Positions 13,424 through 47,775 of a stretch of DNA of 62,394 nucleotides are shown piece by piece. The notes beneath the pieces are model-generated. The model saw only the letters and a program-made list of their open reading frames with translations, searched no databases and was not told the DNA's origin. The stretch's first letter is position 1, and every line of letters starts with the position of its first letter. Source of the stretch: a virus (lineage: Duplodnaviria > Caudoviricetes); the IMG/VR virus record IMGVR_UViG_3300037483_001825, positions 1-62,394 of that record; one strand, given 5' to 3'. A program made the position numbers and the translations under genes.

Positions 13424-14032
13424 TTACCTTAGTGAACAGTTTTGTTCTAGATATTTATTGTGAGCCTCGACCTGAGTATTGAACTTATCAATTCGAGTAT
13501 CAAGTGTGGTCACATCTCTTTCGTATGATGCTAGTTTAAGATTATATGTATCAACTGTATCATTGTAGTCATCAATTTCCCATTGCGATGAATACTCGTT
13601 AACATAACTATTCTCAATTTCTCTCTGCAGGCGTTCGATCTCATTAGCTCGAGTTTCCATAGAGCGTTGAGCATTAGCAAGTTTTTGTTCACTTTCGGTT
13701 GGCGACAGCGCAACCGCCTTATCGTAGTGATATTGAGAGCACCTGTACTCCCCATAATCAACACTTTCATCGTCGACAGCAACATTGTTAACCTGGTTGG
13801 TATTTGGAGAAGTGTAGGTTGATGAAGAGGTGCTATTATCATCGGAAGAACCAATCCAAAATATCACTATTATTACTCCCGCTAGTATTAAGAATAGTTT
13901 CCAATTAGATTTTGCCGAACCAGAGTTCTTTACTACTTTCGTAGTATTCTTACGAATCGATTGCTTTGGTTTTTCCGGATTTTTATCCAAAAAGTCTAAA
14001 TCTATTTCTAATTTTTTATCCTTATTTTTCAT
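13424..14032 (-). CDS. single-pass membrane protein with coiled coil
   Basis: TM LFLILAGVIIVIFWIG; two Cys flank coiled coil; N-terminal KKLEIDLDFLD. Confidence 0.7.
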   Translation of the reverse strand: MKNKDKKLEIDLDFLDKNPEKPKQSIRKNTTKVVKNSGSAKSNWKLFLILAGVIIVIFWIGSSDDNSTSSSTYTSPNTNQVNNVAVDDESVDYGEYRCSQYHYDKAVALSPTESEQKLANAQRSMETRANEIERLQREIENSYVNEYSSQWEIDDYNDTVDTYNLKLASYERDVTTLDTRIDKFNTQVEAHNKYLEQNCSLR

Positions 14033-14038
14033 AAATAG

Positions 14039-14755
14039 TTATTCTAATGCACTGAAGAAAATGATAAGAGTGTACAAAATTGCTGGCGCCACAATAAACC
14101 ATCCTATGGCGCGTTTTTTCTCTACATGCATTGTTTCTCTTACTGCCATATAGCTTAAGCGAATTGTATAAATAATAGCTGCAACGAAAACAAAGAAAAA
14201 CACAACGTCGACTGTAGAAGCATCAGAGTAGTAATAATTTAGGTAATCCTCACCGTACGTCATCTGATTTAATAACAGCATAAGAATGCTTGTAAGGGAT
14301 ATTGGTAGTGAAGTGAAAAGATTAATATTGCGAGACATATTTATATCTTGTTTTCCCTTTGACCATCCAACTCGGACGTTATAGAACCAACCACCAATGT
14401 AGTATCCGAGTGCGCCAGTAAAGATGCCACTTAGAATCACGATTGCCCATATTTTACCCCAGCTAGTGTAGTCCTGAAGTGAACCCGTGAGGTTGTCAGC
14501 GGCTGAGCCTATACCAAATAACCAGACCAACAGAAGGAGGTATGGTGGTTTTTTTGATACTAAATAATTCTTGCAGAATCCATTGAAGTCGGAATAGCAC
14601 TCTTTCAAATATTCGAGAAGGTTCACTTTACTAACGGAAGAGGAAACAGGAGTAGTTGCCACTGGCTTAGTTGCCTGCTCCCGCTCAGTTGACTTTGGGC
14701 TTTCATCTAAGAAATCAAAATCTAAAGATATTTTCTTATTCATATGTTCATCCAA
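14039..14755 (-). CDS. multi-pass membrane protein (Yip1-like)
   Basis: About 5 TM helices; N-terminal KKISLDFDFLD. Confidence 0.65.
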   Translation of the reverse strand: MDEHMNKKISLDFDFLDESPKSTEREQATKPVATTPVSSSVSKVNLLEYLKECYSDFNGFCKNYLVSKKPPYLLLLVWLFGIGSAADNLTGSLQDYTSWGKIWAIVILSGIFTGALGYYIGGWFYNVRVGWSKGKQDINMSRNINLFTSLPISLTSILMLLLNQMTYGEDYLNYYYSDASTVDVVFFFVFVAAIIYTIRLSYMAVRETMHVEKKRAIGWFIVAPAILYTLIIFFSALE

Positions 14756-16343: not shown

Positions 16344-16346
16344 AAA

Positions 16347-26732: not shown

Positions 26733-26765
26733 ATTTGTTTAGGTTAAATCAGTTTTTTGCACTGG

Positions 26766-29700: not shown

Positions 29701-29950
29701 TGGCACTTTGCTTCATGACTTGAAACGCATCCTTTGCAAGTGCAATGCGTTTGTTAAATGAACCTGAATATTCAAATTCAAAAACATGGAGGTCGAGAGA
29801 TTCACTTCTACCTAGGCTCTGTGCTCTGTTGAAAGATTTGTAGTTGCTAATAGAGATAGGCCTAATGTCGCTTTGAAAGTCCTTGAGGAAAACCTCTTTT
29901 AAGAAGCTGGTAAACTGATCACGATTGTATTTTTCATTTAGATTCATCAT
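26766..29950 (-). pseudogene. type IIG/Eco57I-like restriction-modification enzyme, frameshifted at an A6 run (27227-27232)
   Basis: YLNGGLF, GSYYTP, DPACGSG, NPPY in 27176..29950; TaqI-C-like specificity part continues in 26766..27209 in another frame. Confidence 0.8.
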
Positions 29951-32900: not shown

Positions 32901-33231
32901 TATCGAAAATATCGCTGTCATTCATAAAGCCGACAAACGCATCAACATAATTTAATTTACGAACTGTCCTGGAATTAGTATTGTCACGAGATTGCCACTT
33001 GGAGAGATCGATATCACCTTCTTTTGACTGTTGAACAATCTTAGGTATTAATTGAGGATCAACTTCCAAACCCACCAAGATTCTGATCTTTTTATCCTTT
33101 AACTGCTCAAACAGCGCTTGAAATCCTGAAAAATAGAAAAAACCAACTGCAATATCTACACTATCAGCAGTTTGGAGCGCATTCTTTAGTGCCTCCTGCA
33201 AAGTCTGGTTTTTATTATCAATCAGTGCCAT
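29947..33231 (-). CDS. PLD-nuclease / SNF2-like helicase fusion
   Basis: HGKFY + GSSNLT (PLD), ADVVGLGKS, DEAH, TATP, SEGFNL, QRVGRINR. Confidence 0.88.
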   Translation of the reverse strand: MALIDNKNQTLQEALKNALQTADSVDIAVGFFYFSGFQALFEQLKDKKIRILVGLEVDPQLIPKIVQQSKEGDIDLSKWQSRDNTNSRTVRKLNYVDAFVGFMNDSDIFDSDQSNEVFDLYLEKLKNGTLEIRKTVSDYHGKFYLVHNKPDASQSGDFPGTMFMGSSNLTYRGLIGQGELNDSSREKSKFTEYQSEFERMWSDSQSIAIADINTKDDFIKTIKPRIWKYAIPNPYDICIRILHELFHQTEVNSLQTPKVITKGLYNDLEYQIDAIKMVIDKLKKYDGAILADVVGLGKSIISAAVAHNMDMRTVIISPPHLIPQWDDYKEQFGIRGSKVFSSGKINEVYERYKESREPILFVLDEAHRYRNEDTNDYKLLHQVCRGNPDNKVLLLTATPFNNDPKDVFALLKLFQTPGQSTMRSVDNLSLRYRELIQRYKKLRRDMARDLNADEVDKEAKEIAIEQRRLIEPILIRRSRLDLKYITRYREDLAAQGVDFSEVKGPNLLEYDLGDLYDLYIETLGLITKPENQGFIGARYKPTASEYMSEESRKKFIEKYKEEFEDVEDIKIAQSNLAQFMRRLLVMRFESSRDAFRSTLEKMIESNEKIENWWNELGSVPIMKKGQFPDPKDYDLEDGEEGDSLAQDLELLRSKKGFLEIDKSLLNPKFIEDVRHDTELLRSIHRQWYSNSNYADLDPKLDELVLKLKGFLSENPDRKIVIFSSYKDTVDYLHRELQKRGFNRVTRYTAAEGTDTYKKIIKANFDASYPQELQENDYDVLLATDALSEGFNLHRAGIVINYDIPYNPTRVIQRVGRINRINKKVFDYLYVYNCFPTAVGEEETRLKSISTLKIKLINAVVGSDTRTLTSDEELTSFFKDEFDKAKQQDEQLSWDAPHREAYEKALKTKDMDKIHRLPRRSRIKRSNTGKQGVVVFGKKGSNSIFTYGVDQVEADVVAAESALSYFQAKPEDKGESVGDDFIMAFNTAKEKLFGKHELPKIQGRRAKAIHVLKVIADEMPTTRDYCEDIISIIKTLDDLSDGSLKDISRLDLRNVENARQQLFEIVPETYIRNMLTRAGRTEGEEELLLFAEQLV

Positions 33232-33558: not shown

Positions 33559-33630
33559 CGCCTAACGAATCTATCGGGGCTTGGGATTCTCTATTTTTCC
33601 AAAAGTAGACGAACCTAAGCCCTTTTTTTT
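33559..33630 (+). promoter_or_regulatory. conserved leader motif copy 1 overlapping a terminator-like hairpin
   Basis: CGCCTAACGAATCTATCGGGGCT, stem 33577-33622, then T8, 16 nt before portal ATG. Confidence 0.65.
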
Positions 33631-33646
33631 GTTAGTCAACACCACT

Positions 33647-35536
33647 ATGCCAAAACCCAAAGTCAAAGAAACTAAAATCACACCCCAGAAAAGATACCAG
33701 CCTTCTGAGCGTGACGAAGAACTCTTAAAAAAATGGAAGGCTCGATTTAAGCGAGCTAAAGAGTTTCGTGAACCATACCAAGCAAAATGGCTGAGAATGT
33801 ACAGGCTTTACCGTGCGTACCAACATAAACAGAATTACGCTTACAACACCCGACTGATGCCCCCGATTGCCTTTGAGATTGTCAAAACAGTTGTTTCCCG
33901 CCTTGCTACTGCCAAGCGCAAAACACGAATAATACCTAGAGATAAAGGGGACGTTGAATCAACTTCTTTACTGTCCTGGGACGACTTGGTGAATTATGAC
34001 TTCGACATTATCGAGTTGGCCAAGAAACTCCCCAACTGGATAGAGTCTTCAGTGTTGTATGGAAATGGGATAGTCAAGCTTGCATGGAAAATGAAAAGCA
34101 GGAAGAAATCTGATGGCTCGTTTAAAACTCTATATGATGACCCCACCATGATCTTGTGTGATCTTTGGGACTTCCTGCCGGCTCCGGAAACAGAAGATCT
34201 TCAAGAAGGCTGTCCTTGGCTCATTCATCGGATAATAAAAACCAAGGAAAAAATCACCAAAGAAGAAGAAAGTCGTGGTGAAAATAACATTTATAAGAAT
34301 CTGGAGTTTTGTGAACCTAAAGTCGTAGAGGATTGGAAAAAAGAGCGATACGAGATTAACACTAAAAAGATGTCGCAAATTGACGGCGATATCAAAAAAG
34401 CTGACACTGGGGAGCAAAAAGTCTTACCGGCTAAAAATGATCAAGAGAAACAACTGGAACTATGGGAATGCTGGGACTATGAGGATGACGAGTTGGTGGT
34501 TATTGCTAACGGCGAAGTTGTAATTAGAGATGATGAAAACCCCTACTTGGATATAAATGACGGGCATATTTTTGTTGACTTGCCTGATATGTCACTACTT
34601 TGGGAATTTTGGGCTACTGGCCATGTTGAGCCAGTTGAAAGCACCATCATGGAGATTGCTGATCTTCGTAATCAGCGTATGGATGATGTGATCTTGATGT
34701 TAGATCCAGTAGTCAAGATTCGCAAAGACACTGGCATAACTAAAAATGACATCATCTTCTCACCAGGTGCGGTGTGGGAACTCAGGAAAATGGATGATGT
34801 GGTGATTGAACGTCCTCCTGAAATCAGCTTAATGGGGCTCAATGAGGACAAACTCCTAAGGGATGAGATATCCAGAACTCTAGCTCTAGGTGAGTACCTG
34901 CAGGGTCTTCCCAGATCGTCAAGCGAGCCACTTGGCAAGGTAGCAATGTTATTAGGTCAAAGCAATTTGCGACTAAGCATAAACGCACAAAATATTTCCA
35001 ATGCGTTAACAACTGTGGCCAATATTCTTATTCAGCTAAATCGTGAATTCTTAAGTGAAGACAAACTCTATCGTATTGTGGGAAACAATGTCAATTTCAA
35101 GGAATTTAAATCTGACGACAAGAAAGTCCATGTAGATGCCATTGTAGAGGTTGAGCCGGTGATACCGCCTGATAAACAAGCCAGACTAAATCAAATTTTA
35201 CTCTTATACGATAAATTCATTGCCCAAGACAAACCGGACCCCAGCGATCCAGTGGGTATAAAACAGTGGTTGGTTCGCAAACGAGCTCTACAAAAGATGA
35301 TTTTAGAGGAGTTGGATTTCGAACAATACGTCGATATCCTGCTTGGTCCCGAAGTGACATTAAAGCAGGAGGAGGCTGAAGAAGCGCCACCGAAAGTGGA
35401 AGCCGTTGCCCCTGTGGCGCCTTCTAACGGCACTTTGCCTGCAAATACAACCAAAGCACCACCTATGGCGGATACGAACAAAATTAGAGAGTTAATCGGG
35501 AAAATTCCAGAGTTAGGTAAAATGCTTACAAATTGA
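33647..35536 (+). CDS. portal protein (podovirus-like)
   Basis: ~630 aa; YGNGIVKLAW, DLWDFLP.P, N.RMD; size and position; ORF track start 33581 lies inside the hairpin. Confidence 0.8.
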   Translation: MPKPKVKETKITPQKRYQPSERDEELLKKWKARFKRAKEFREPYQAKWLRMYRLYRAYQHKQNYAYNTRLMPPIAFEIVKTVVSRLATAKRKTRIIPRDKGDVESTSLLSWDDLVNYDFDIIELAKKLPNWIESSVLYGNGIVKLAWKMKSRKKSDGSFKTLYDDPTMILCDLWDFLPAPETEDLQEGCPWLIHRIIKTKEKITKEEESRGENNIYKNLEFCEPKVVEDWKKERYEINTKKMSQIDGDIKKADTGEQKVLPAKNDQEKQLELWECWDYEDDELVVIANGEVVIRDDENPYLDINDGHIFVDLPDMSLLWEFWATGHVEPVESTIMEIADLRNQRMDDVILMLDPVVKIRKDTGITKNDIIFSPGAVWELRKMDDVVIERPPEISLMGLNEDKLLRDEISRTLALGEYLQGLPRSSSEPLGKVAMLLGQSNLRLSINAQNISNALTTVANILIQLNREFLSEDKLYRIVGNNVNFKEFKSDDKKVHVDAIVEVEPVIPPDKQARLNQILLLYDKFIAQDKPDPSDPVGIKQWLVRKRALQKMILEELDFEQYVDILLGPEVTLKQEEAEEAPPKVEAVAPVAPSNGTLPANTTKAPPMADTNKIRELIGKIPELGKMLTN

Positions 35537-35545
35537 GAGTTGGCT

Positions 35546-35573
35546 TTGATTTATTGCCTTGAGTGAATATAAT
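35546..35573 (+). promoter_or_regulatory. sigma70-like promoter at left edge of island 2
   Basis: TTGATT-16nt-TATAAT, 7 nt before ATG 35581 (possibly leaderless). Confidence 0.5.
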
Positions 35574-35580
35574 TGAAAGT

Positions 35581-35832
35581 ATGAAGGTAAGAAAAGTAAA
35601 ACTCTTCATAACAATGCTTATGGCAATATTGTTTGCAATAGTCGGCATAATCGTTGGTTATCAACTTAGAGGCAATTCCAGACCAACTAGCTGTGCAGAA
35701 CTCGGCGCAACTTATCTTGAAATTGGAAAAGAAGAGTTGGGGATAACAGACTTCGGATCAGACGAATGGATAAGGTTAATTGATGATGAAACAAAGTTTA
35801 CGAATGACTGTTACAAAAGCATGAATAAATAG
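35581..35832 (+). CDS. small membrane-anchored protein
   Basis: N-terminal TM, two Cys. Confidence 0.6.
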   Translation: MKVRKVKLFITMLMAILFAIVGIIVGYQLRGNSRPTSCAELGATYLEIGKEELGITDFGSDEWIRLIDDETKFTNDCYKSMNK

Positions 35833-35833
35833 T

Positions 35834-37396
35834 ATGGATAAAATAACCCTCTCCTTCCAAACAATCTCCTTGCTTATCAACTCAGGTGAATCAAAAAAAG
35901 CACTACAGAGATTAACTGAGTTCGAAAGGGAAAACTCTGATGACAAAAGGCTGGTATTTTATAAGCCTGGTTTTCTAGTTGATATAGGAAATGACCTCAG
36001 AGATGAAAAAGTCATTAGTGAGGGTATCAATATTGGCGAGCAAACATTATTAAAAACAAACAATAACAAGACAAAGGCTTATCTCCACTACTGCCTGGCA
36101 AATGGGTACACATGTCTATATCAGCTTACTGAAAGAATGGGTGGTGCTGTGGACAGAACCATACCTCAAAGCGAGAATCTTCTCAAGGCTAAACAACACT
36201 TGCTTCAAGCCACACATATTGAAATTGATGACTCAAGTCTAGAAGTCCAATTGTTGGTTAATCTGGGAAACTGCTTAGACACATTTGGTAGAGGGATTGA
36301 GGCAATTCACGCTTATGACAAGGCTCTTCGTTTGAGTAAAAACTTCCCAATGGCAGTAGCTAATAGAGCAAAGGCACTTCGGGGTTTTGCTGAGATTTCT
36401 GATAAATATCGACCTTCGATATATGTTACGGCTTACCAGGATATTAAATCGGTCCTAGATGATTCAAGGCTTGTACAAGTTGGTGGGCTTGAAGCAAAAA
36501 AGGAATTTGAGCGTGAGCTTATCTACATCGAGTCTCGTTTTGAAGATAAATCACTACTCAAGAAAAAAATTAAACACCCTCGATATAAAACTAATGGACT
36601 TACCAAGTTTGAAAAATACTACTTAGATTTCTGCAGTCACGAAAGGCTGTTTCTGAACTTTCATATTCATGACGACTTTTGCGAAGCAGCAATTGAAGAT
36701 CCTGTGTTCATCAGACTGATTACGAAAGTTGATGATAACGATACATTCTACAGCTTTGCAAAACAACTCAACCAGATCAAGGAAGATTACGCCGTAGCCA
36801 GGTTGAATCTGGTCCTATCCCAATACAAGCAAAAGTCGTTCGACAGCATTAGTAAGAGAACTAGTTATGTATATGCTTTGGACTATTCCCAATTTAATCT
36901 TTACATTGGTTTGCTGAAGTCGGCGTTTAAAGATGCCTTTAACATTCTGGACAAGATAGCCGTATTTATTAACGACTATTATGACTTGGGACTCAAAGAA
37001 AATAACATTTATTTTGTTACTGCATCCATCTGGGAAGGTAAAGGAATTATCAGGAAAGAAATACTTAACTCTGAAAACTTAAGCCTTTATGCTTTATACG
37101 ATATTTATCGTGATTTTAAATCAAATAGATATCAAAAAATGAAGCAAATCAGAAACGTTCTCACTCACAGAAGACTCATTGTTTTTGATTCCATAATTAC
37201 AAGTGTTGATGATAAGACTGATAAACACAACATAGATTCTGACACCTTTTTTAAGGAAACACTAGATCTGATGCGTCTAACTAAGGCAGCAATTATTTAC
37301 TTGATTAATTTTGTTAATACTGAGGAAGAAAAGAAAAAGAAAGCGAATGGAAAGTTAATATTGGATATGCCTGTGGATACGTCTCAGTTTCTGTAA
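35834..37396 (+). CDS. TPR + LA2681-like HEPN domain protein (putative Abi RNase)
   Basis: TPR NLGNCLDTFGR..EAI..YDKAL; FLN.H, NQIKEDY..AR, F..LDKIA, RNVLTH (RxxxxH). Confidence 0.8.
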   Translation: MDKITLSFQTISLLINSGESKKALQRLTEFERENSDDKRLVFYKPGFLVDIGNDLRDEKVISEGINIGEQTLLKTNNNKTKAYLHYCLANGYTCLYQLTERMGGAVDRTIPQSENLLKAKQHLLQATHIEIDDSSLEVQLLVNLGNCLDTFGRGIEAIHAYDKALRLSKNFPMAVANRAKALRGFAEISDKYRPSIYVTAYQDIKSVLDDSRLVQVGGLEAKKEFERELIYIESRFEDKSLLKKKIKHPRYKTNGLTKFEKYYLDFCSHERLFLNFHIHDDFCEAAIEDPVFIRLITKVDDNDTFYSFAKQLNQIKEDYAVARLNLVLSQYKQKSFDSISKRTSYVYALDYSQFNLYIGLLKSAFKDAFNILDKIAVFINDYYDLGLKENNIYFVTASIWEGKGIIRKEILNSENLSLYALYDIYRDFKSNRYQKMKQIRNVLTHRRLIVFDSIITSVDDKTDKHNIDSDTFFKETLDLMRLTKAAIIYLINFVNTEEEKKKKANGKLILDMPVDTSQFL

Positions 37397-37436
37397 GACT
37401 TTTCCGGTAATTTTTTATATAATCTAGGTACATCCT

Positions 37437-39536
37437 ATGGAACAAAAAGCTGATCACACTATGGAGAGAGAAACACCTACAACCTTACACGCTCTGCGCA
37501 AAGATAACCAAACAGAAATTTTGGGGCATTTTTCTCCTGACCAACAGCAGGAAATTCAACACAGACAGCAAATTCTCTCCTCCTTGGCATACTTTATTGG
37601 TAAAGACTTTCAAATACCTGTTGAGCTAAATAAACCTGGTGCTGGCTGGCATTGGGACTTTGGTAAAAATATTATTCGCATCGACCCCAAAGATTTACTT
37701 GAAAAAGATATGGACTACCTGCGTTTTGTTATTTCCCATGAAGGTGGTCATAGGCGTGTTTCACGAACAGAGGATATTCCCACCGAAACCTGGCAAAAGC
37801 CTGGCTTCTCTTTCATGATGAACGCAATTGAAGACCCCAGAACAAATAATTTTGTAGCTGAAGCTTACCCTCGCTTTCGTGACCAGATGGACATTGCTTA
37901 TCAAGAAGATCTAGATTTTGAGGGTAAAACAAAAGAAAAAGCTCAGGATCAGTTGGGCTACACCCCACGATTTATGCAAGCCGGTTTTGAGTACATTCGT
38001 CAATGGTACAGAGAAACTCAAGGCGAAGAATTGGGAACTTTGAGTGAAGACTTACCGGAAGAAGTAAAAACTGTAGTTAACCAGACCTTGGAAAGTGCGC
38101 GGGATTCTTGGTTGCGTTACCCTTCAAAACAGGAGGCTGATGAGAGTGAAGAACTAATCAGAAGGTATGCCAATGTCAGTTATGAAATTAACAGAGATGA
38201 AGTCTGGCCAAAATTTCAGAAACTGGTTGAGGAGGATATGCAAGACCAGGAAATGCAGGAGTTTATGAAAGATATGCAGGGTGATGGGGAAGGTGATGGA
38301 CAACAAGGACTCCCACAGGAACTTTCTGATTCACTTACAGAGGATGAGCAAAAAGAATTAGAAGAAGCGATAGAAAATGCCCAGCAAGGAAATCAAACTG
38401 GTTCGGAAGGTACCGGCCAATCTAAGGCAATTGATCTTGACTCTCTTTCTGAAGGTCTTAAACAAAAAATTAAGGATTATATTGATTCTCTACCAGAAGA
38501 TGTCAAACGGGAGTTAGCGGAGAAAGCACAGCAGGCTCTACAGGACTTCGAGCGTGAAGTAAATGAAGAATTTGAAGGAAAGCTATCAGATAATCCAGAA
38601 AAACTAGCACAGCGCGGTGAAACTACTGAAAGTCAAAAAAAAGAGTCAAGACAGGAATCAGAAGATGAAAGTGAAACTGAGAACCGCCCAGAGCAAACTA
38701 CTGACCAAAAACGATTTAAAGACTTGATAGAAAAAGCCTTGCTTGGAGATGAAAATACTTATGAAGAATATCGTCGCGATGTACTTCCCTTGATTGACAC
38801 GCTTGAGTCTGACTTGCGAGAAATTTTTGTAGCCAGAAGATCTCAAAAATGGCAAACAGGGTTCAAATCTGGAAAGCGCATCGATATTAAACGTAGAATG
38901 CAAGAAAAGGCGTTAGGGATTTCTGCAGTCGAAAGCAGAGCTTGGCAAAAGCGTGAAGTTCCTCAGGAAAAAGATTATGCGATTAGTTTACTAGTCGATT
39001 TGTCGGGCTCCATGCGAGGACAAAAAATTAGAGAGACATTCAGAGCGGCAGTTGTGCTCGCTGAGGTGCTTAACAGACTCTCAATCAACACCGAAATTCT
39101 TGGTTTCAATGACAGGCTTTATGAATACCAACCATTTGGGCAAGACATGAGCCGTGAGGTAAGAGAACACATGGGTGGAATACTTCAGGAAGTAGATACT
39201 TCTGCCGCTGCACACAATGATGACGGCTGGGCTGTACAACAAGCTTCAGAGAGATTAGCGCGTCAAACCGCAGCTGAGAAATTTTTATTTGTACTTTCTG
39301 ATGGTCTACCAGAAGAATCAAGCGCCCACTCTGGACTAGAGTATGAGCTTGGCAAAACTGTTAATCAGATAATGCGGGATACAGATCAAAAATTAATTGG
39401 TCTGGGTATTGGTCCCGGAACAGATCATGTCGGGAGATATTATCCAAATAGTGTGGCAAATATTGGAGTGCGCGAAATGTCGGAGAAATTAGCTGATATT
39501 ATTAGAGAAGTAATCGCCAATTATGACACTTTCTAG
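37437..39536 (+). CDS. metallopeptidase-like + vWA domain protein (CobT-like architecture)
   Basis: HEGGH (HExxH) and NAIEDPR; acidic linker; MIDAS DLSGS, NDDG, LSDG. Confidence 0.85.
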   Translation: MEQKADHTMERETPTTLHALRKDNQTEILGHFSPDQQQEIQHRQQILSSLAYFIGKDFQIPVELNKPGAGWHWDFGKNIIRIDPKDLLEKDMDYLRFVISHEGGHRRVSRTEDIPTETWQKPGFSFMMNAIEDPRTNNFVAEAYPRFRDQMDIAYQEDLDFEGKTKEKAQDQLGYTPRFMQAGFEYIRQWYRETQGEELGTLSEDLPEEVKTVVNQTLESARDSWLRYPSKQEADESEELIRRYANVSYEINRDEVWPKFQKLVEEDMQDQEMQEFMKDMQGDGEGDGQQGLPQELSDSLTEDEQKELEEAIENAQQGNQTGSEGTGQSKAIDLDSLSEGLKQKIKDYIDSLPEDVKRELAEKAQQALQDFEREVNEEFEGKLSDNPEKLAQRGETTESQKKESRQESEDESETENRPEQTTDQKRFKDLIEKALLGDENTYEEYRRDVLPLIDTLESDLREIFVARRSQKWQTGFKSGKRIDIKRRMQEKALGISAVESRAWQKREVPQEKDYAISLLVDLSGSMRGQKIRETFRAAVVLAEVLNRLSINTEILGFNDRLYEYQPFGQDMSREVREHMGGILQEVDTSAAAHNDDGWAVQQASERLARQTAAEKFLFVLSDGLPEESSAHSGLEYELGKTVNQIMRDTDQKLIGLGIGPGTDHVGRYYPNSVANIGVREMSEKLADIIREVIANYDTF

Positions 39537-39553
39537 TATACTATGCATATCAT

Positions 39554-39961
39554 ATGACAAATACATTTGAAGATTTTCTAAAATACACTAAATCCCAAAA
39601 AGAAGTTTCTCTAGTGATTGCTAAGGATGATAATGAGTTTGATAGTTTCTTAAAGAAGCTGGGTGATGCTCAGTTTAGACAGGCAGTTGATACTTCTGAC
39701 TTGTTTAAGCATATTACAAAGGCTTCAAAATCTTTTGTAGCAGTCAAAGACACTTTGTCTAAGGATCTATATGATTTTGCAGTGCAGTACCCTACTGGTC
39801 AGGTTGAGATTTACGATAAGTTTAATTTAAAATCCCAAATAATTACACCAGTTTATAACGATGTTACTGTTGTTTACGTATTAACTAAGGCTGCCCTTAA
39901 GAAAACCCAGGAGTCCGGGTTTAGGATTCTTGAGATAGCAGGTATTACATATCAAAGCTAA
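39554..39961 (+). CDS. hypothetical protein between vWA and AAA genes
   Basis: 135 aa, tightly spaced in operon; YDFAVQYPTGQVEI. Confidence 0.7.
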   Translation: MTNTFEDFLKYTKSQKEVSLVIAKDDNEFDSFLKKLGDAQFRQAVDTSDLFKHITKASKSFVAVKDTLSKDLYDFAVQYPTGQVEIYDKFNLKSQIITPVYNDVTVVYVLTKAALKKTQESGFRILEIAGITYQS

Positions 39962-39966
39962 AAACT

Positions 39967-41910
39967 ATGCCAGACGAATCCATGGAGAGACATCAATTTA
40001 CGCCACCACCAGAATATCCTGTTGAGGAGAACCGTGATACTGTCGCCTATCTAGGTGTCCGATTACCCAAAGCTCAAAATGCAGAAGGACATTTTGTCCC
40101 CAGCCGAGAACAATATGCCGATTACATAAACGATAAGTTTTCTCTTGGGTTACAAAAGGACATTGCAGTCAGCTGGCTACAAGGTGATCCGATATTGATC
40201 GAAGGTGGAACTAGTATTGGTAAAACCACTACGGTCAGGAAAATGGCAGCAGATCTGGGTTGGGAAGTTCATTATGCCAACCTAAACGGTGCAACAGATG
40301 TTGAAGACCTGATGGGTAGATACATCCCCAATCCCGACAAAAGAAGTGCTGATGATCCAGAGTATATATTCGCAGACGGAAAAGTTACTTCAGGTTTAAG
40401 ACAGGAAGACGGCAAAGTTAAAGTAATTATTCTAGATGAATTTAATTCAGCTGCTCCAAACATTGTTATTCGACTTCATGAAGTTTTAGATGCAGTCAAT
40501 CGCGGTGAAGCCGTTGTTTTATCAGAAGACGCATCTGAATCCATTCCTGTCAGCAAAGAAGCTACTAAAGTAGTGGCTCTTATGAACCCCCCTGGTAAAG
40601 GGTATTTTGGCAGGGAGCCATTGGATCCGGCACAATTAAGGCGTTGGGTGTACCTAAAAGCTCCTTCTGAATTACCTGATGACACCTTCTCCTACTCTAC
40701 AGATGCTCTATTTACTTTAGCTTCTCTGGAAGAAGAAGTTTCCCCTGAAGACTTTCTGATTTCACAGGACTACGCCTTGCATCCAGAGCAACTACAGGAA
40801 ATACAGGGAATTGATTCAATTTTAGGAAAATACAAAGAGTTTCATAAAGCAGCAAAAGAGTTGGTTAAAGGCAGGCGAATAGCGGCAGACCAGCCTCAGC
40901 CGTTTACTTATGATGATAGAATGGAGCCTAGGCGCGTTCGTGACTTCATCCTGAGATTTTACAACGGTGATATAAATGAAACGTTTCAGGCCGCCCTACG
41001 CTATTACTATTCAAATAAGTTGGATTCAGAAGTAGATAAACAAAAACTTGAAGAATTAATTCAACATGTAGAATACATTGCTCCCCAGAATGTCTCCCCA
41101 AGGCGTGGCTTTGACCGCAACTCAGCCTCAGTTCCCGAAAGGCAAAGAGAGACAATCGAAGTATCTCAAGAACAGAATGCCTGGAGCGATGTTCTAGGGA
41201 CTAATGTGGAAGTTCCTCCTCTGCCAGCGAAAATAACACCAGAGGTCCAAAGAAACCTTGAACGCCTTGGATTTGAATTAAGGTATATTCCCAGACTTGA
41301 TATGGGTACACTAGATGAGCTTCAACGTAATGGCCAGGAGAAATTTCTTGACGAGATCCAAAGTCGTTACCCTAACTGGCGTCGATATGAAACCTTATCC
41401 AGTGAACAAAGAGAAGATCACAGAGTCGGAAGAAATCTGGAAGAGTGGTTTTGGGGATTGGCAAAGGACGGAAGAATGGACTTCCCTCGGCTACCAGGCA
41501 CTTGGGTGGCCGTAGAAACTATGCAGAAGCCTCCCTATGGGGAACATTACGACAAAACTCCAGTAAGCGAGGGTTTGGGACTTGAAGATCGTTTTAGTGT
41601 TTCTTGGGACGATGCTCACAGGGCAATTGAGAATAACAAAAGTGAGCTTTTGAGGGAAATTGGCTTACCGTCTTCAGCTGAAGTGAGAATGTTAGAAGCC
41701 GTTGAATGGAACTTACTTGCCAATCGTGAAGGTTGGGGTTCTACCAACACCTATGAATGGACGAATACTGAAGTTCGTGATGACGGCGGTTCTACCCGTG
41801 TCATTGTTGGCAACTCCGGCCTTGGTGGTGCCGCCAACGCCAATTGGAATCTTCCGACGCACTCGTGTGGCCGCCTTGGTTTCCGTGTCGCTGTAGTTCT
41901 TGGAACTTGA
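39967..41910 (+). CDS. DGR target: MoxR/AAA_5-type ATPase with C-terminal CLec (FGE-like) variable domain
   Basis: GGTSIGKT, IILDEFN, MNPP..GREPLDPAQLRRW; C-terminal RMLEAVEW, TYEWT, LGFRVAV; contains VR. Confidence 0.9.
   Translation: MPDESMERHQFTPPPEYPVEENRDTVAYLGVRLPKAQNAEGHFVPSREQYADYINDKFSLGLQKDIAVSWLQGDPILIEGGTSIGKTTTVRKMAADLGWEVHYANLNGATDVEDLMGRYIPNPDKRSADDPEYIFADGKVTSGLRQEDGKVKVIILDEFNSAAPNIVIRLHEVLDAVNRGEAVVLSEDASESIPVSKEATKVVALMNPPGKGYFGREPLDPAQLRRWVYLKAPSELPDDTFSYSTDALFTLASLEEEVSPEDFLISQDYALHPEQLQEIQGIDSILGKYKEFHKAAKELVKGRRIAADQPQPFTYDDRMEPRRVRDFILRFYNGDINETFQAALRYYYSNKLDSEVDKQKLEELIQHVEYIAPQNVSPRRGFDRNSASVPERQRETIEVSQEQNAWSDVLGTNVEVPPLPAKITPEVQRNLERLGFELRYIPRLDMGTLDELQRNGQEKFLDEIQSRYPNWRRYETLSSEQREDHRVGRNLEEWFWGLAKDGRMDFPRLPGTWVAVETMQKPPYGEHYDKTPVSEGLGLEDRFSVSWDDAHRAIENNKSELLREIGLPSSAEVRMLEAVEWNLLANREGWGSTNTYEWTNTEVRDDGGSTRVIVGNSGLGGAANANWNLPTHSCGRLGFRVAVVLGT
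41776..41897 (+). repeat. DGR variable repeat (VR)
   Basis: 122-bp match to 42370-42491; 12 of 13 mismatches at TR adenines. Confidence 0.95.
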
Positions 41911-41956
41911 TCTCTTGAATTCTTGGTTCTTTTGGATTCTTGTTACTTGGTCCCTT

Positions 41957-41973
41957 GACCCGCGAAGCGGGTC
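41957..41973 (+). other. DGR cis hairpin/cruciform downstream of VR
   Basis: GACCCGC-GAA-GCGGGTC, perfect 7-bp stem with GAA loop. Confidence 0.85.
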
Positions 41974-42030
41974 GATTTTAGTGATTTTTTTATGTCTTCA
42001 CAATATGTAGACTATAGATAGCATTTACCC

Positions 42031-42060
42031 TTGATTTTAGGCACTACTCTTCTTTATACT
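42031..42060 (+). promoter_or_regulatory. candidate promoter for TR RNA
   Basis: TTGATT-18nt-TATACT. Confidence 0.45.
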
Positions 42061-42369
42061 TCAACTTAGATTTTGTTAATGAAAATACGGGCACGCTCGT
42101 GTTTCGCAAAGTCGCTCTTCTTTAGAGCTAGACCAGAGTCCTTATGGTTAAGGCTGTAGGGAGCGTGTCGATAAAGGAGGGATAAAACTACTTGCTTACT
42201 TTTGAAGGTCTCAGGGAAACCAGAGCCGATTAAAATACAGGAGAGAGTTCTTAAGCAATTAGGGACAATCTTGGTAAAGAGTAAAAATTCAAAATAGTAC
42301 GTTAAAGAAACCAGTGGCAACAATGAAAGGCTTAATATCCTTTCAGGAAAGAAAGTAAGCAACGCGAAA

Positions 42370-42491
42370 CGTGATGACGGCGATTCTAACCGTGTCATCG
42401 TTGGCAACTCCGACAATGGTGGTGCCGCCAACGCCAATTGGAATCATCCGACGAACTCGAATGACAACCTTGGTTTCCGTGTCGCTGTAGT
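42370..42491 (+). ncRNA. DGR template repeat (TR)
   Basis: A-rich copy of VR: 27 adenines, 9 AAY codons in the VR frame, only one third-position A. Confidence 0.95.
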
Positions 42492-42531
42492 CTTATCTCA
42501 ACCTGCACAAATAAACTGTACCAAGCCAGAG

Positions 42532-42918
42532 TCAGGAATTATAGGTGGATGCTTTAATCCAGCCGCCAAGCATCCTACCTATTTCCTGTAGTTTGGATTC
42601 AAGAAGGAGGTAATTTTTGTTATCAATAATCTTTAAATCTTTACAACAACGTATGAGTACTTTAAGAACATCGAGTTTAATACTAGCACCCTGTAGAGTT
42701 GGCACTTTTTCAGACTTTGAAAGCTGGCTTGCAGTGACGATATCTTCAATCAGCCCCAGCATACCATTTTCAATTTTTTGCCCGATAGAGTACCGGTCTT
42801 TTTTAGGAAAATGAGCTACAAGTTGATAAAAGAATTTGTAGAGCTCGTATGTTTTATGAAAAACCGGTATGTCTAAATTAAGCCTGCCCGGTTCAAAGCT
42901 TTTATGAGAATCTGGCAT
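42532..42918 (-). CDS. avd: DGR accessory variability determinant (four-helix bundle)
   Basis: FPKKDRYSIGQKI ... EIGRMLGGWIK; lies between TR and RT. Confidence 0.88.
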   Translation of the reverse strand: MPDSHKSFEPGRLNLDIPVFHKTYELYKFFYQLVAHFPKKDRYSIGQKIENGMLGLIEDIVTASQLSKSEKVPTLQGASIKLDVLKVLIRCCKDLKIIDNKNYLLLESKLQEIGRMLGGWIKASTYNS

Positions 42919-43941
42919 AATAATTACAATCAGATTATAACACTTGAAAACTTATTTCAGGCATGGGAAGAATTCCTCAAAGGTAAAAAAAGCAAAGCTG
43001 ATGTCGAAATATTCGGGCGAAATTTAGAAGATAATATCTTTACTTTATATGAGGAACTTGAGAAAAAGGCTTATCGTCACGGAAATTATCAGGAATTTTA
43101 CGTCAGAGATCCTAAGGTCCGTCATATCCATAAAGCTTGTGTAAAGGACAGGGTGGTTCATCATCTTACAAGTAGCGTGCTGGAGGAGGTTTTTGATCCC
43201 ACTTTTTATCCTCACTCCTACTCATGCAGAAAGAATAAAGGGACACATAAAGCTGTCCAGACTTTTGTAAAAATGTCCAGAAAAGCCAGTAAAAATAACA
43301 CCTCAAAATTACTGGTTTTGAAATGCGATATCAAAAAGTTTTTTGCAAATGTTGATCACGAAATTCTGATTAAGCTGCTCAGAAGAAGAATTAGTGATAA
43401 AGACTTTATTAATCTTTTAACAGAGATAATCACCAGTTTTAAGTTACTTAATCAAAATTGCGGAATGCCCATAGGTAACTTAACGTCACAACTTTTTGCC
43501 AATATTTATATGGATCCCCTAGATCAATTTGTGAAACATAATCTTGGAGTTAAATACTACATACGATATGCCGATGATTTTGTTGTTATGTCGGACAATC
43601 GCAAGTATTTGGAAGAAATTCTTTTACAAATGAAAAGTTTTCTTGATACAGAATTAAAACTTACCTTGCATCCAAATAAAATTCACATTGTGGATTATTA
43701 CCTTGGTGTTGATTTTTTAGGATACGTGATTTTTCCAAAATACATTCTGCCTCGAACAAAAACAAAAAGAAGGATTTTTAGAAAACTAGAGGAAACATCC
43801 CAAAAAATAAAAGATGGCATCCTCCTTCCGGAGGCACTCGATCAGGCTCTTCAGTCTTATCTAGGACATTTGTCACACTGCAATAGCTACAAACTGTCTC
43901 AAGAAATAAAAAACCATGCCCTCTTTTTTCAGACTAATTAA
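42904..43941 (+). CDS. DGR reverse transcriptase
   Basis: PKVR.I, DRVVHH, SYSCR..KGTH, CDIKKFF, GMPIGNLTSQLFANIY, RYADD, DFLGY; 345 aa, no maturase/endonuclease tail. Confidence 0.95.
   Translation: MRIWHNNYNQIITLENLFQAWEEFLKGKKSKADVEIFGRNLEDNIFTLYEELEKKAYRHGNYQEFYVRDPKVRHIHKACVKDRVVHHLTSSVLEEVFDPTFYPHSYSCRKNKGTHKAVQTFVKMSRKASKNNTSKLLVLKCDIKKFFANVDHEILIKLLRRRISDKDFINLLTEIITSFKLLNQNCGMPIGNLTSQLFANIYMDPLDQFVKHNLGVKYYIRYADDFVVMSDNRKYLEEILLQMKSFLDTELKLTLHPNKIHIVDYYLGVDFLGYVIFPKYILPRTKTKRRIFRKLEETSQKIKDGILLPEALDQALQSYLGHLSHCNSYKLSQEIKNHALFFQTN
42934..42942 (-). promoter_or_regulatory. extended -10 promoter for avd inside RT 5' end
   Basis: Minus strand TGTTATAAT, 15 nt upstream of avd ATG. Confidence 0.5.
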
Positions 43942-44153
43942 AAAGTGAATAATTCTTGCATTTCGACTTTAAGAGCTTTGGCCAGCCTGTGAATATTATC
44001 AAGGGAGACATTTTGTTCTCCCCTTTCAACCGAGCCAATATATGTCCTATGAATGTCGGCCTTAAAACCCAACTCTTCCTGGGACAATTGTGCTTCCTTT
44101 CTTAGGAATCTTAGTCGTTTGCCGAATTTTTTTCTAACATTATATTTTGGCAT
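43938..44153 (-). CDS. XRE HTH, RM controller (C-protein)-like
   Basis: FGKRLRFLR...SQEELG...IHRTYIGSVERGEQNVSLDNIHRLAKAL. Confidence 0.9.
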   Translation of the reverse strand: MPKYNVRKKFGKRLRFLRKEAQLSQEELGFKADIHRTYIGSVERGEQNVSLDNIHRLAKALKVEMQELFTF

Positions 44154-44185
44154 ATTACCCTTGACTAAAAGAGTAGTTTTTTGCA

Positions 44186-44211
44186 GACAATAACTCTACA
44201 GACGATAACTA
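44186..44211 (-). promoter_or_regulatory. C-box-like tandem operator
   Basis: Minus strand TAGTTATCGTC-TGTA-GAGTTATTGTC, 15-bp period. Confidence 0.55.
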
Positions 44212-44237
44212 GCATTTGTGCTACAATTAGCCCTGAA

Positions 44238-44549
44238 ATGAAGAAAAATATGGCTATAGAATTTTATGAATTCAGCCCCATTGAAGGCATTAGTGATGAG
44301 GCTCTTCTTAAGGCTGTTAAAAAAGCCCAATACAGCTTTTTCAGAAAGCAAGAGGGCTTCATTGGATGTGAAATTCTTAAATCAGGAAAAAACTGGGTGA
44401 GCATTAGCTACTGGAAAAATGTTGAGGTGGCTAGAAGAACACTCGATCAGTTCCTAAATCATTCAAGCAGTCTACCCTTTGTACAAATGATATCTCCAAG
44501 CAGTGAACGTCGCTTATACATGCGACGGAAAATGTCCTCCAAGAAATAA
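44238..44549 (+). CDS. ABM/dimeric alpha-beta barrel-like protein
   Basis: FFRKQEGFIGCEIL...WVSISYWKN; 3' part of ORF 44181..44549. Confidence 0.55.
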   Translation: MKKNMAIEFYEFSPIEGISDEALLKAVKKAQYSFFRKQEGFIGCEILKSGKNWVSISYWKNVEVARRTLDQFLNHSSSLPFVQMISPSSERRLYMRRKMSSKK

Positions 44550-46605: not shown

Positions 46606-47775
46606 ATGCCAGCATCAGCAACAGGAATCAGAGGTACAGGAAATGTCGGAGCGACACGCAAATATGACGTGGCGGATGTTGTATCGCTTTTGGATGTCAA
46701 TCGATATCCTCTAGTAGCGATATTGACAAATGCAGGTAAAGATCCGGCAACCGGCGAAGGAGAGGCTCTGAAAAAAAGAGAATCTTCTGATCCAGAATTC
46801 AAATGGTTTGAAGATGAATTCGGCAAACGACAACTCACAGGATCCAGCACAGTTGATCCAGATGGAGGCAACTTAACCATTACTGGTCAATCCCAGTATT
46901 TACAGGTTGGCGACATTATCTTGGTTTCAGCCCAAAAATGGGTCTTCCAAGTCACTGCAATCGTAGACGCTAACACGGTTACTGTCGGGGCTGAGTTAGG
47001 TGGGGCAACTGGATCGGCCGCTTCCGCAGTCGGAGACGTTTGGCTCATTGGTAACGCCAATGAAGAAGGTGCCGGTTTGCGAGATATCAAGTCGACAACT
47101 ATCGCCGAAGTAGCAAACTACTGTCAGATTTTCCGAACTCCAGTAGGTATCACAGAAACCGCCAGGAATACGCAGGGTTGGGTGAAAGAAAACGACTTTG
47201 ATTACCAAAGGCGCAAAAAAGGTATCGAGCATTATGTCGATATCGAGCGAACCTTTATGTTTGGTAAGAAAGGAATCGTAACATCAGGAACTCATCCGAA
47301 ACGCTTTACCAACGGTATTTTAGGGAGAATTGCCACTTACGCATCGGCCAACGTTGACACCGAGTCAGAATTTGACTCATGGCTGGAAAGTCTCTTTGCT
47401 CACGGCAATACAGAGAAATATCTGTTTGCATCTGCAGCAGTTGTTTCGATGGTTAACGGTTGGGCTAAAGGGAAGCTCCAAGTGGTTAACCCCACAAAAG
47501 CTTATGGACTGCGAATCGTGACTTATGACTCCCCGCACGGAACTCTGCATATCATCAAGCATCCGCTACTGATCGGAACGACTTACGGTAATTACGCCGT
47601 TGGTTTAGATATGGAGGCCTTGACCTACCGCTACCTGACAAATCGTGACACCAAGCTTTTGACTAATCGTCAAAATCCCGGTGAAGACAGCCAAGTTGAC
47701 GAGTACCTGACCGAATGTGGTCTGCAAATGGAACAAGAACAACGCCACGCCATTATGAGCGTAGGTTCACTCTAA
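46606..47775 (+). CDS. major capsid protein (DUF5309/SU10-like)
   Basis: KWFEDE, NEEGA, NYCQIFR, DIERTFMFG, YDSPHGTL, E.GLQM; strong SD. Confidence 0.85.
   Translation: MPASATGIRGTGNVGATRKYDVADVVSLLDVNRYPLVAILTNAGKDPATGEGEALKKRESSDPEFKWFEDEFGKRQLTGSSTVDPDGGNLTITGQSQYLQVGDIILVSAQKWVFQVTAIVDANTVTVGAELGGATGSAASAVGDVWLIGNANEEGAGLRDIKSTTIAEVANYCQIFRTPVGITETARNTQGWVKENDFDYQRRKKGIEHYVDIERTFMFGKKGIVTSGTHPKRFTNGILGRIATYASANVDTESEFDSWLESLFAHGNTEKYLFASAAVVSMVNGWAKGKLQVVNPTKAYGLRIVTYDSPHGTLHIIKHPLLIGTTYGNYAVGLDMEALTYRYLTNRDTKLLTNRQNPGEDSQVDEYLTECGLQMEQEQRHAIMSVGSL

Follow-up and report, generated by a model that had tools for sequence, protein, structure and literature searches.

A CPR-type DGR cassette carried by a phage diversifies a MoxR-class ATPase encoded in a fixed three-gene unit, with a possible use in conflict

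DGR targets in which a CLec domain is fused to an AAA ATPase are already on record from CPR genomes: they are given as the commonest CPR DGR target in PMC10907252 (Doré et al. 2024), citing Paul 2017, and the excerpts of PMC10907252 also propose that the ATPase of these targets acts as a signal transducer. The latter overtakes one statement of an initial annotation of the DNA studied here, which knew of no function assigned to AAA-fused CPR targets. Wu et al. 2018, as excerpted, state that next to nothing is known of links between CPR DGRs and phages, and do not settle on a fold for VR. MoxR-vWA conflict systems with DGR-diversified domains were described by Kaur et al. 2020 (PMC7159879), who left CPR out of their habit statistics. 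Both AAA-CLec targets in CPR and DGR-diversified MoxR-vWA systems are therefore already published.

The DNA analysed here (the window, 62,394 nucleotides) is a prophage of a tiny-genome CPR bacterium carrying a working DGR. The DGR is complete within 37437-43941, comprising VR, TR, a minus-strand Avd and RT, and its sole target is a MoxR-class AAA+ ATPase of 647 aa (Table 1). The DGR features, the target and the neighbouring genes were all found where the initial annotation had placed them.

Table 1. Position and assignment of the features in and around the cassette
Feature	Coordinates	Strand	Size	Assignment or remarks
HEPN gene	35834-37396			HEPN_LA2681 1.4e-32, weak TPR
Zincin-vWA protein	37437-39536	+	699 aa	CobT_C 6e-19, VWA 9e-6
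p135	39554-39961	+	135 aa	family unassigned
DGR target ATPase	39967-41910	+	647 aa	AAA_5 (Pfam) 1.2e-12 over residues 76-226
Variable repeat (VR)	41776-41897	+	122 nt	codons 604-644 of the ATPase target
GC-rich hairpin, then T run	41955-41975	+		starts 45 nt past the target stop codon
Template repeat (TR)	42370-42491	+	122 nt	27 adenines
Avd accessory protein	42532-42918	-	128 aa	Pfam bAvd 5.3e-23; strand opposite TR and RT
DGR reverse transcriptase	42904-43941	+	345 aa	RVT_1 1.2e-28; PADLOC RT model 1.9e-52
XRE-type HTH protein	43938-44153	-	71 aa	HTH_3 3e-14

TR and VR differ at 13 positions, 12 of them at TR adenines and one a synonymous C>T change; because only 27 of the 122 TR positions are adenine, the binomial P for this bias is 1.4e-7. 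All 12 adenine-site changes hit the first or second position of a codon, within codons 608-636 of the 647, and the TR adenines, read in the VR frame, lie mostly within AAY, GAY or CAT codons. Further sequence is available from run X3 (a different sample code) as a single contig of depth 4.3, in which the flanks are identical and VR differs at nine positions, 9/9 at TR adenines (chance about 4e-7). The DGR has recently rewritten VR and mutagenic homing is ongoing, which bears out the earlier proposal that the DGR hypermutates an AAA+ target. A search of both strands of the whole window detected no second VR-like copy; the fibre gene is therefore not a DGR target, in agreement with the initial annotation, which had seen no TR-like sequence there.

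The order of a minus-strand Avd followed by a plus-strand RT is common to most related loci. The hairpin behind the target has a 9-bp stem with six GC pairs and is the top terminator-like site within 35400-44300; its folding energy of -8.4 kcal/mol (z -4.16) was matched by none of 200 shuffles. It is likely to serve both as terminator of the three-gene unit described below and as the DGR-type inverted repeat 3' of VR. The XRE-type HTH protein, a relative of which adjoins the cassette in 12 of 75 loci, is a possible regulator, its membership of the system being uncertain.

The target is built from a MoxR-class AAA+ module with its lid (residues 1-373), a disordered linker (374-397) and a 250-aa C-terminal domain (398-647) that carries VR. 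Walker A (GGTSIGKT, 80-87) and Walker B (D157-E158) are present, and G81, T82, G85, K86, T87, D157, E158, N207, R225 and R226 are invariant across 55 sequences. The AF2 model has a pLDDT of 85.4, and the structures nearest to the fold are CbbQ, NorQ, CHU_0153, RavA and BchI, the NorQ matches including complexes with the NorD vWA domain. With its motifs intact and its fold nearest to solved MoxR members, the target is a MoxR-class ATPase; 426 proteins of its family were recovered at E<=1e-3 among 8000 candidates scored. Its 19-residue hydrophobicity peaks at 0.87 and its N-terminus is acidic, as judged from a Kyte-Doolittle scan alone and no dedicated predictor, from which we infer that there is no TM segment or signal peptide. 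The same scan found no hydrophobic segment or signal-like N-terminus in the ATPase, the zincin-vWA protein or p135, and on sequence grounds the target appears to be cytoplasmic.

The initial annotation had described the target as a CLec-like domain fused to an AAA_5 ATPase lacking a TM segment and signal peptide. The ATPase assignment and the lack of both elements stand, but the C-type lectin fold is suggested by motifs only, and searches did not confirm it. PDB profile searches with the variable domain returned nothing significant (best 5aoh_A, E 0.33, over the VR motif), and a profile comparison with Mtd was not significant either (probability <1%, E 0.085, last 27 columns only). Pfam FGE-sulfatase matched one of 12 members (9.4e-4) and one of 55 (4.7e-3); the fold-match lists for the target are filled throughout by AAA matches. 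Among the homologues, the C-terminal tails of the ATPases vary at fixed VR positions, and A-specific TR/VR pairs of several VR types lie at the 3' end of the ATPase gene in 23 loci, the variable domain having been exchanged between five or more VR types with the ATPase staying the same. DGR evidence was found in 36 of the 48 loci with at least 3 kb of downstream flank, and 12 long-flank loci have the three-gene unit with no DGR nearby, so diversification is not obligatory.

Directly upstream of the target lie the genes for the zincin-vWA protein and p135. In the former, a zincin-like N-terminal domain (~21-262) is joined by an acidic linker of ~190 residues to a C-terminal vWA domain. The zincin-like domain, whose fold matches are mostly zinc metallopeptidases, contains HEGGH at 101-105 and a conserved E132/D133/R135 group. 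Across 73 homologues, conservation is 90% or higher at H101, E102, H105, E132 and D133, a gluzincin-type HExxH motif followed by a third ligand. The vWA domain has a conserved MIDAS motif (D521, S523 and S525 in DxSxS 521-525, with D622). The HExxH and MIDAS motifs seen by the initial annotation are thus both in place, as is the 135-aa protein it had noted beside them. A repeat search found no VR copy in the zincin-vWA gene. For p135, there was no match in Pfam (E<=0.01), PHROG or PADLOC. Its predicted complex with the ATPase has an ipSAE of 0.76 against 0.01 for the best control, a value that expresses the confidence of the model and is not measured. In a benchmark, 58 of 80 solved complexes and 2 of 110 mismatched pairs score at least that high, counts that are only a rough guide here because our own alignments were used for the p135-ATPase prediction. 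Three runs share at least 90% of contacts, the partner pLDDT is 86, and the conserved p135 residues 70-99 are placed on the Walker A/B face. Complex prediction, which the initial annotation had suggested, thus yields a candidate partner for the ATPase, and p135 is predicted to sit on its nucleotide-binding face.

One scan of 185,579 species-representative genomes yielded 73 loci. The three genes (zincin-vWA, p135 and ATPase) are kept together in 68 of 75 related loci (phmmer), mostly in Patescibacteria, and most of the seven misses are cut by contig ends or recovered by BLAST clustering. In 70 of 72 loci the ATPase gene is immediately preceded by the p135 gene, which in turn adjoins the vWA gene in 60 of 70. 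The synteny that the initial annotation had named as a test is therefore conserved: many lineages of Patescibacteria have inherited the three genes together. The HEPN gene, annotated earlier as a toxin, is a neighbour in the window but not a member of the system, being present in 7/75 related loci, all close relatives, and occurring without the cassette in locus L082. Most loci are chromosomal, on contigs belonging to genomes of 0.7-1.8 Mb, and phage structural genes are absent within 10 kb of them. In the window, the cassette lies behind the portal gene, between it and the scaffold/capsid genes. Among 32 related phage loci, two have the cassette and 26 have portal and capsid genes uninterrupted by it; in locus L019 the cassette flanks the portal gene on the opposite side. 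The cassette is cargo that members of this phage family may carry or lack.

Just upstream of the cassette the window encodes Gabija, a type IIG RM and a PLD-Snf2 gene, and the flanks of distant loci match models of RM types I/IIG/III, Mokosh, AbiE and CBASS+NucC, alongside housekeeping genes (MreB, pyruvate kinase and a tRNA synthetase). With PADLOC, the flanks gave 242 families in 147 proteins against 36 in 141 proteins of control regions, a crude control in that one UvrD-like protein, excluded for its size alone, matched 55 helicase models and the control list itself contains MzaA and LmuA matches. The three proteins of the unit have no match among the PADLOC defence models, except for a weak match of the ATPase to mad8 (4e-4).

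What might such a unit do? We regard it as a probable conflict system that can be retargeted, of a type already known in part, and a defence role is plausible. Our preferred description, that of a CPR-type DGR cassette with a cytoplasmic MoxR ATPase as target, set in a fixed three-gene unit whose most likely use is conflict, is one to which we give a little less than an even chance. The ATPase ring would display several copies of the variable domain, which would bind a cytoplasmic protein ligand, while p135 would hold the ATP site (also the ring interface) until ligand binding. The ring would then act via the vWA/MIDAS protein, as in CbbQ-CbbO and NorQ-NorD, and the attached zincin domain might cut either the protein that has been captured or one of the cell's own. 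Other phages, or mobile elements, could thereby be kept from the cell or lysogen, new specificities being furnished by the DGR. A more specific version, which we consider doubtful, is an anticipatory protein-level immune device of ultra-small bacteria and their phages, made up of a DGR-written AAA+ ring, a p135 lock and a zinc peptidase. Here p135 would lock the ATP site of the ring until an invader protein is bound, and the vWA-tethered peptidase would destroy the captured protein or trigger cell suicide; free-standing copies of the variable domain might, in some genomes, tune or extend the repertoire, and phages would carry the device as superinfection-exclusion cargo.

The same parts could be put to other uses. 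A phage or mobile element might employ them in offence or counter-defence, capturing and inactivating changing host proteins such as defence proteins; a binder joined to an unfoldase-like ATPase and a peptidase suits the targeted removal of any cytoplasmic protein, diversification fits an arms race from either side, and the cassette is cargo of a phage. We nevertheless regard this as unlikely, given that most loci are chromosomal and far from phage structural genes, and that the neighbours in the window are defence genes rather than known anti-defence genes. Slightly less likely again is a classical role in surface or symbiont-host contact, in which the variable domain, exported by an unconventional route, would bind an external ligand while the other parts, ATPase and vWA protein, would aid assembly or export. 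Most studied DGR targets do bind external ligands, vWA domains are often adhesive, and host-cell interaction is suggested for some CPR DGRs in the excerpts of PMC10907252; however, the three proteins are free of hydrophobic segments and signal-like N-termini in the scan above, and all are typical soluble parts of MoxR systems.

That the unit is a chaperone-protease for housekeeping or regulation, able to tune its choice of clients and outside any conflict, seems improbable. MoxR-vWA pairs mature Rubisco and NO reductase (as the titles of the matched structures have it), some loci lie amid housekeeping genes and 12 units have no DGR nearby, but the distribution is patchy, the cassette is optional in the phage family that carries it, and a hypermutated client-binding part is hard to reconcile with a fixed cellular client. 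The location of the genes between portal and scaffold/capsid, the usual site of a head protease, would suit a chaperone-protease for virion assembly or maturation, as the excerpts of PMC7824862 propose for a similar jumbo-phage pair of MoxR and metallopeptidase-vWA proteins. This very improbable reading is largely refuted because the cassette is absent from sister phages, 26 related loci running from portal to p132-scaffold-capsid without it; in addition, L019 has it on the portal gene's other side and most loci have no phage structural genes nearby. Least credible of all is a viral CobS/CobT cobaltochelatase pair boosting host cobalamin synthesis. Pfam CobT_C, the PHROG families named cobaltochelatase and porphyrin biosynthesis, 114 phage records with a relative of the vWA part annotated as CobT, and the like reading of a viral cobST cluster in PMC8651126 all point that way. 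Against it, the match is confined to the vWA part, with no phage record covering at least 80% of the protein, the N-terminal part is zincin-like, and the ATPase bears a hypermutated binding domain. To our knowledge, CPR genomes generally lack corrin synthesis.

Conflict thus being the use we favour, how does the locus compare with known systems? The AAA-fused DGR targets of CPR/DPANN (Paul et al. 2017; PMC10907252, PMC5758913; 'UVR4'/Midasin-like in Wu et al. 2018) share its host group and, as excerpted, likewise consist of an AAA ATPase with a C-terminal VR. Those excerpts give no partners, function or phage link, whereas here there are a zincin-vWA protein, p135, phage carriage and swapping of VR types. 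The MoxR-vWA-VMAP ternary systems, as excerpted in PMC7159879 and PMC10907252, are likewise operons that encode a MoxR ATPase, a vWA protein and one further component and have a DGR as neighbour. Their diversified domain is likewise proposed to sense, or to act as effector, in conflicts within the cytoplasm, and fusions of a metallopeptidase to the vWA protein are noted there as rare cases. They differ in bearing the variable FGS/CLec domain on the vWA protein and not, as here, on the MoxR ATPase, and apparently in having as third protein a large tripartite VMAP, p135 being far smaller and matching no Pfam family at E<=0.01. They are also enriched in multicellular bacteria, whereas the present system is in CPR genomes and a CPR phage.

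CbbQ-CbbO and NorQ-NorD pair a MoxR AAA+ protein with a vWA/MIDAS adaptor but serve one fixed client enzyme each; they lack p135, a retroelement and a variable domain, and their vWA partner bears no zincin domain. The 'CobS/CobT' pairs of tailed phages, according to the excerpts of PMC8651126 and PMC7824862, likewise consist of an AAA_5 protein and a vWA protein with an N-terminal peptidase-like region. They resemble the present proteins in the vWA part alone (24-34% identity across residues 438-693, among the 25 of 114 records listed), and they have neither DGR nor p135; no ATPase-VR fusion was found in deposited phages, where two records match, in the AAA part only. With the DGR of the Bordetella phage BPP-1 the locus shares its mechanism (TR, a VR at the 3' end, A-specific changes, Avd, RT and a GC hairpin after VR), but the BPP-1 target Mtd is a tail-fibre protein with an external ligand, and gene order and Avd strand differ. 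Though Paul 2017 may hold part of it, the fixed partnership with a zincin-vWA protein and p135, and its carriage by a phage, appear to be new.

The reading best supported by our data is a structural one: the window carries a DGR of the CPR type, which targets the subunit that bears the sensor in a three-protein MoxR machine. The DGR coordinates and gene list of the initial annotation proved correct when checked again. VR and TR are the only direct repeat pair in the window, and of their 13 mismatches 12 fall at TR adenines, the other being a synonymous C>T; given 27 A in 122 nt, the binomial probability of at least 12 of 13 mismatches at A is 1.4e-7. All A-changes are at codon positions 1 or 2 of AAY, GAY or CAT codons, and they span codons 608-636 of the 647-codon target gene. 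The top terminator-like site of the region is the hairpin that follows this gene. Both strands of the window were searched for a further VR-like copy and none was found, so the DGR has a single target and the fibre gene, in which no TR-like sequence had been noticed earlier, is not among its targets.

Features of the window, by position (nt)
Feature	Position	Strand	Remarks
Terminase large subunit	3677-5257		
Trypsin-like peptidase	10679-11965	minus	
Classical AAA ATPase	12340-13419	minus	
Hsp70-like protein	16347-18860	minus	837 aa
DUF2779/Cas4-like protein	terminase-portal block	minus	
Gabija GajB	22549-24492	minus	
Gabija GajA	24474-26732	minus	
Type IIG restriction-modification enzyme	27176-29950	minus	
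HKD/PLD-Snf2 helicase	29947-33231	minus	
Portal	33581-35536		
HEPN protein	35834-37396		HEPN_LA2681 + TPR
Zincin-vWA gene	37437-39536		
p135	39554-39961		135 aa
Target ATPase	39967-41910	plus	647 aa
VR	41776-41897		122 nt, direct repeat with TR
GC-rich 9-bp hairpin + T run	45 nt past target stop codon		z -4.16
ORF antisense to TR region	42066-42437	minus	123 aa
TR	42370-42491		122 nt; 27 A
Avd	42532-42918	minus	bAvd 5e-23; 3' of TR
RT	42904-43941		RVT_1 1e-28; 3' of TR
XRE-type HTH gene + 122-aa protein	43938-44549	minus (HTH gene)	3' of RT; 122-aa protein with weak ABM-like match
Major capsid protein	46606-47775		
Amidase, tail-fibre-like protein, 1678-aa protein	3' of capsid gene		

The DGR is active. 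Contigs of a run from a different sample, with a different study code (X3), match the window exactly on both VR flanks and differ from it at nine VR positions, all nine at TR adenines (chance about 4e-7). This comparison was made on a single contig of depth 4.3; all four runs were compared as contigs rather than reads, and none of the 24 runs listed was of RNA. In a related locus with an 86% identical target (L006), the triad and the HEPN gene are present, but the 10 kb downstream hold neither Avd nor RT nor TR, and many codons of the VR are still for Asn, as expected of a TR-encoded sequence.

Several smaller features of the DGR region may be recorded here. A transcript running from TR into the RT gene is necessarily antisense to the entire avd gene (42370-42918), a layout that recurs in most related loci. 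The 123-aa ORF on the opposite strand of the TR region is unlikely to be a gene, since conservation of the TR itself accounts for its 'homologues' in 6 loci. The HTH gene and the 122-aa protein accompany the cassette in relatives whose target identity is as low as 66% (L011), and relatives of the HTH gene adjoin it in 12 of 75 loci.

The target's ATPase module is of the AAA_5 family, with Walker A (GGTSIGKT, 80-87), Walker B (D157/E158), N207 and R225-R226 invariant across 55 homologues. An AlphaFold model (pLDDT 85.4) divides the protein into an AAA+ module with lid (1-373), a disordered linker (374-397) and a C-terminal domain of 250 residues. The closest solved structures are MoxR-class ATPases: CHU_0153 (2r44, scoring 17.9), CbbQ (6l1q, 16.8; Foldseek E 8e-12), RavA (16.7), NorQ (15.7, in some entries as a complex with the vWA domain of NorD) and BchI (15.5). 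That the target lacks a signal peptide or TM segment had been claimed from the start, and a Kyte-Doolittle scan, the sole method applied, agrees, finding no hydrophobic segment or signal-like N-terminus in any of the three triad proteins.

For the variable domain the sequence evidence is weak, yet points in one direction. Searches with the full-length model (Foldseek against the PDB, VIA-wide and BFVD) gave AAA matches only, and profiles of 12 and 57 variable-domain sequences had no significant match in the PDB, the larger one aligning the VR motif to chain 5aoh_A at E 0.33. In an hhalign comparison with BPP-1 Mtd, the last 27 columns match the Mtd end (E 0.085, not significant); Pfam FGE-sulfatase gives rare weak matches (1 of 12 members at 9.4e-4, 1 of 55 at 4.7e-3), and the ESM Atlas returned only unnamed clusters of ~250 aa. 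The family is large, with 411 clusters at 50% identity (E<=1e-3), mostly free-standing proteins of about 270-300 aa.

The target family as a whole comprises 426 members at E<=1e-3 among 8000 candidates scored, with source names that include MoxR-like ATPase and Patescibacteria. Across the 120 members listed, tails vary at fixed positions in a constant frame; the last twenty share the ATPase part only and have a different variable tail. One scan of species-representative genomes yielded 73 loci, labelled as deposited as Patescibacteria lineages (50), 'bacterium' only (9) or other (14), and the 14 cassette genomes inspected are 0.7-1.8 Mb in size with a single copy each. The proposal that the vWA gene and the small ORF are conserved together with the target holds across these relatives: phmmer recovers the triad in 68 of 75 loci, p135 lies immediately 5' of the ATPase gene in 70 of 72, and the vWA gene immediately 5' of p135 in 60 of 70, the ten exceptions having an inserted gene or a vWA gene relocated downstream. 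As to the seven loci missed by phmmer, three are truncated by contig ends (L055, L060, L075), two do have p135 by BLAST clustering (L065, L066), one is a distant MoxR (L077) and one has 6.3 kb of upstream sequence without either partner gene (L070). Of the 48 loci whose downstream sequence extends to 3 kb or more, 36 give evidence of a DGR (RT, Avd or an A-specific TR); in twelve loci the flanks are long, yet no DGR lies close by. A-specific TR/VR pairs lie at the ATPase 3' end in 23 loci and are of several VR types.

At least 13 loci (L022, L023, L031, L035, L042, L044, L045, L047, L051, L055, L058, L069 and L073) encode additional free-standing targets, one or, as in L051, two. These proteins of about 330-365 aa share the VR type of the ATPase, and their genes follow the ATPase gene or are placed between those for the vWA protein and p135. 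Three short variable-domain relatives occur together on one 484,806-base contig.

p135 matches no family in Pfam, PHROGs or PADLOC. Its structural neighbours in the ESM Atlas, P-loop-like domains, were not usable, the Atlas model being poor (pLDDT 0.38). We predicted the complex of p135 with the full-length target in three runs, using our own alignments. The score, which is the model's own confidence, was 0.76 in each run against 0.01 for the best control. The same mark was attained in 58 of 80 solved complexes and in 2 of 110 mismatched pairs, figures that apply only roughly given the use of our own alignments. The runs share at least 90% of contacts, with a partner pLDDT of 86. On this prediction, p135 binds the ATPase at the ATP site: its best conserved segment (residues 70-99, with Y73, Q78, Y79, G82, Q83 and P99 among them) is placed against residues 82, 85, 87 and 88 of Walker A and 157-158 of Walker B. 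In AAA+ rings, the Walker A/B face contacts the neighbouring protomer. Because the contacted face thus abuts the next protomer, p135 may gate ring assembly or ATP turnover.

The window is an IMG/VR provirus record, estimated to be 75% complete, and the target protein is found also on a 543,983-base contig. The cassette is cargo and not a core phage gene. Among 32 viral loci whose capsid protein is related (55-96% identity), it is present in two, both from the contigs that also gave L001 and L002; 26 have portal and capsid genes but no intervening cassette, usually with the portal followed directly by p132-p84-scaffold-capsid, three have other genes at the site, and one is too short to judge. 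In L019 the cassette is upstream of the portal gene. Since the cassette is optional and its position varies among related phage loci, we infer that the site behind the portal is a cargo hot spot, and the unit travels as cargo between chromosomes and phages. A role in virion assembly, which has been proposed for a phage MoxR and peptidase-vWA pair (in passages of PMC7824862), ranks low for this unit, as it sits at such a hot spot and is missing from the 26 related phage loci. We also rank low the identification of the ATPase-vWA pair as a cobaltochelatase; viral cobST have been read as cobalamin genes (in part of PMC8651126).

In members of the same capsid group (L079-L110), the hot spot between the portal and the p132 homologue is filled by different genes, for example by those for an ABC ATPase with a permease (L080, L083) or for proteins of 841-842 aa without a known family (L082, L084). 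This other cargo has no clear defence match, 8 of 10 proteins having none and the other two resembling an ABC ATPase and a permease. In two related phages (L095, L096), genes for a DGR RT and Avd lie 5' of the portal gene but those for vWA and ATPase are absent; this DGR must therefore have a different target.

We rejected the neighbouring HEPN protein as a part of the system, which the initial annotation had listed as the next gene upstream: its gene is present in 7 of 75 loci, close relatives only, and travels independently, occurring without the cassette in L082. A minus-strand gene block lies between terminase and portal, and within it a defence island (22549-33231) directly upstream of the portal gene. 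The peptidase, AAA and Hsp70-like genes of the same block (10679-18860) may be another NTPase-chaperone conflict system, of the kind described in parts of PMC7159879. Locus L067 has homologues of the type IIG enzyme and the PLD-Snf2 helicase beside its own triad. The flanks of 14 distant loci hold 147 proteins, among which are PLD, ResIII, HerA, integrase and AbiEii domains, as well as MreB, pyruvate kinase and a tRNA synthetase. PADLOC gave 242 models in these proteins (among them type I, IIG and III RM, Mokosh A/B/C, AbiEi/Eii, a CBASS cyclase with NucC, and SoFic) and 36 in 141 proteins of 15-kb control stretches from the same contigs, MzaA and LmuA matches among them; seven large proteins were excluded from the control for size, one of them a UvrD-like helicase with 55 models alone, and redundant models dominate the count, so we give the comparison no statistical weight. 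The suggested association with defence islands thus stands for the window, with its Gabija and RM genes, and is suggestive but not established, on this crude control, for the distant loci.

Use in conflict is the most likely role of the cassette, favoured by its mobility, patchy distribution, hypermutation and neighbours in the window. In the mechanism that we propose from family behaviour and one predicted complex, the variable domain would bind, remodelling would be driven by ATP via the vWA adaptor, the zincin would cleave and p135 would gate. To the whole, a DGR-diversified MoxR machine with both this mechanism and a conflict role, we give a chance slightly short of even. Through three results, the partnership, the mobility as cargo and the active DGR, what was an orphan target becomes a defined machine open to bench tests. 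Should the defence reading hold, it would represent adaptive-like immunity acting on proteins, not nucleic acids, in organisms not yet cultured, and would provide a natural scaffold for capturing and cleaving proteins in a programmable way.

How far does this extend what has been described? Wu et al. (2018; PMC5758913) report Midasin-like AAA matches in CPR 'UVR4' targets, and the relevant passages assign no fold or function and give no information on phage association; Roux et al. (2021; PMC8144416) leave open, in the part on these targets, whether they are truly non-membrane proteins. Zincin-vWA and p135 partners of CPR AAA-CLec targets are not described in the literature searched, Paul et al. 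2017 and supplements lying outside its scope. Deposited phage genomes have relatives of the vWA part only (114 records, none with at least 80% coverage), and the ATPase-VR fusion is absent from them save for two AAA-only matches. As far as our searches reach, the fixed partnership, the predicted p135 contact, VR-type swapping, the extra free targets and carriage by phages are apparently undescribed. Known systems include, in sections of PMC10907252, AAA-fused variable proteins as the commonest DGR targets in CPR and DGR targets within MoxR ternary systems, and, in sections of PMC7159879, MoxR-vWA-VMAP systems in which metallopeptidase fusions are rare and the vWA protein bears a fused, DGR-diversified FGS domain.
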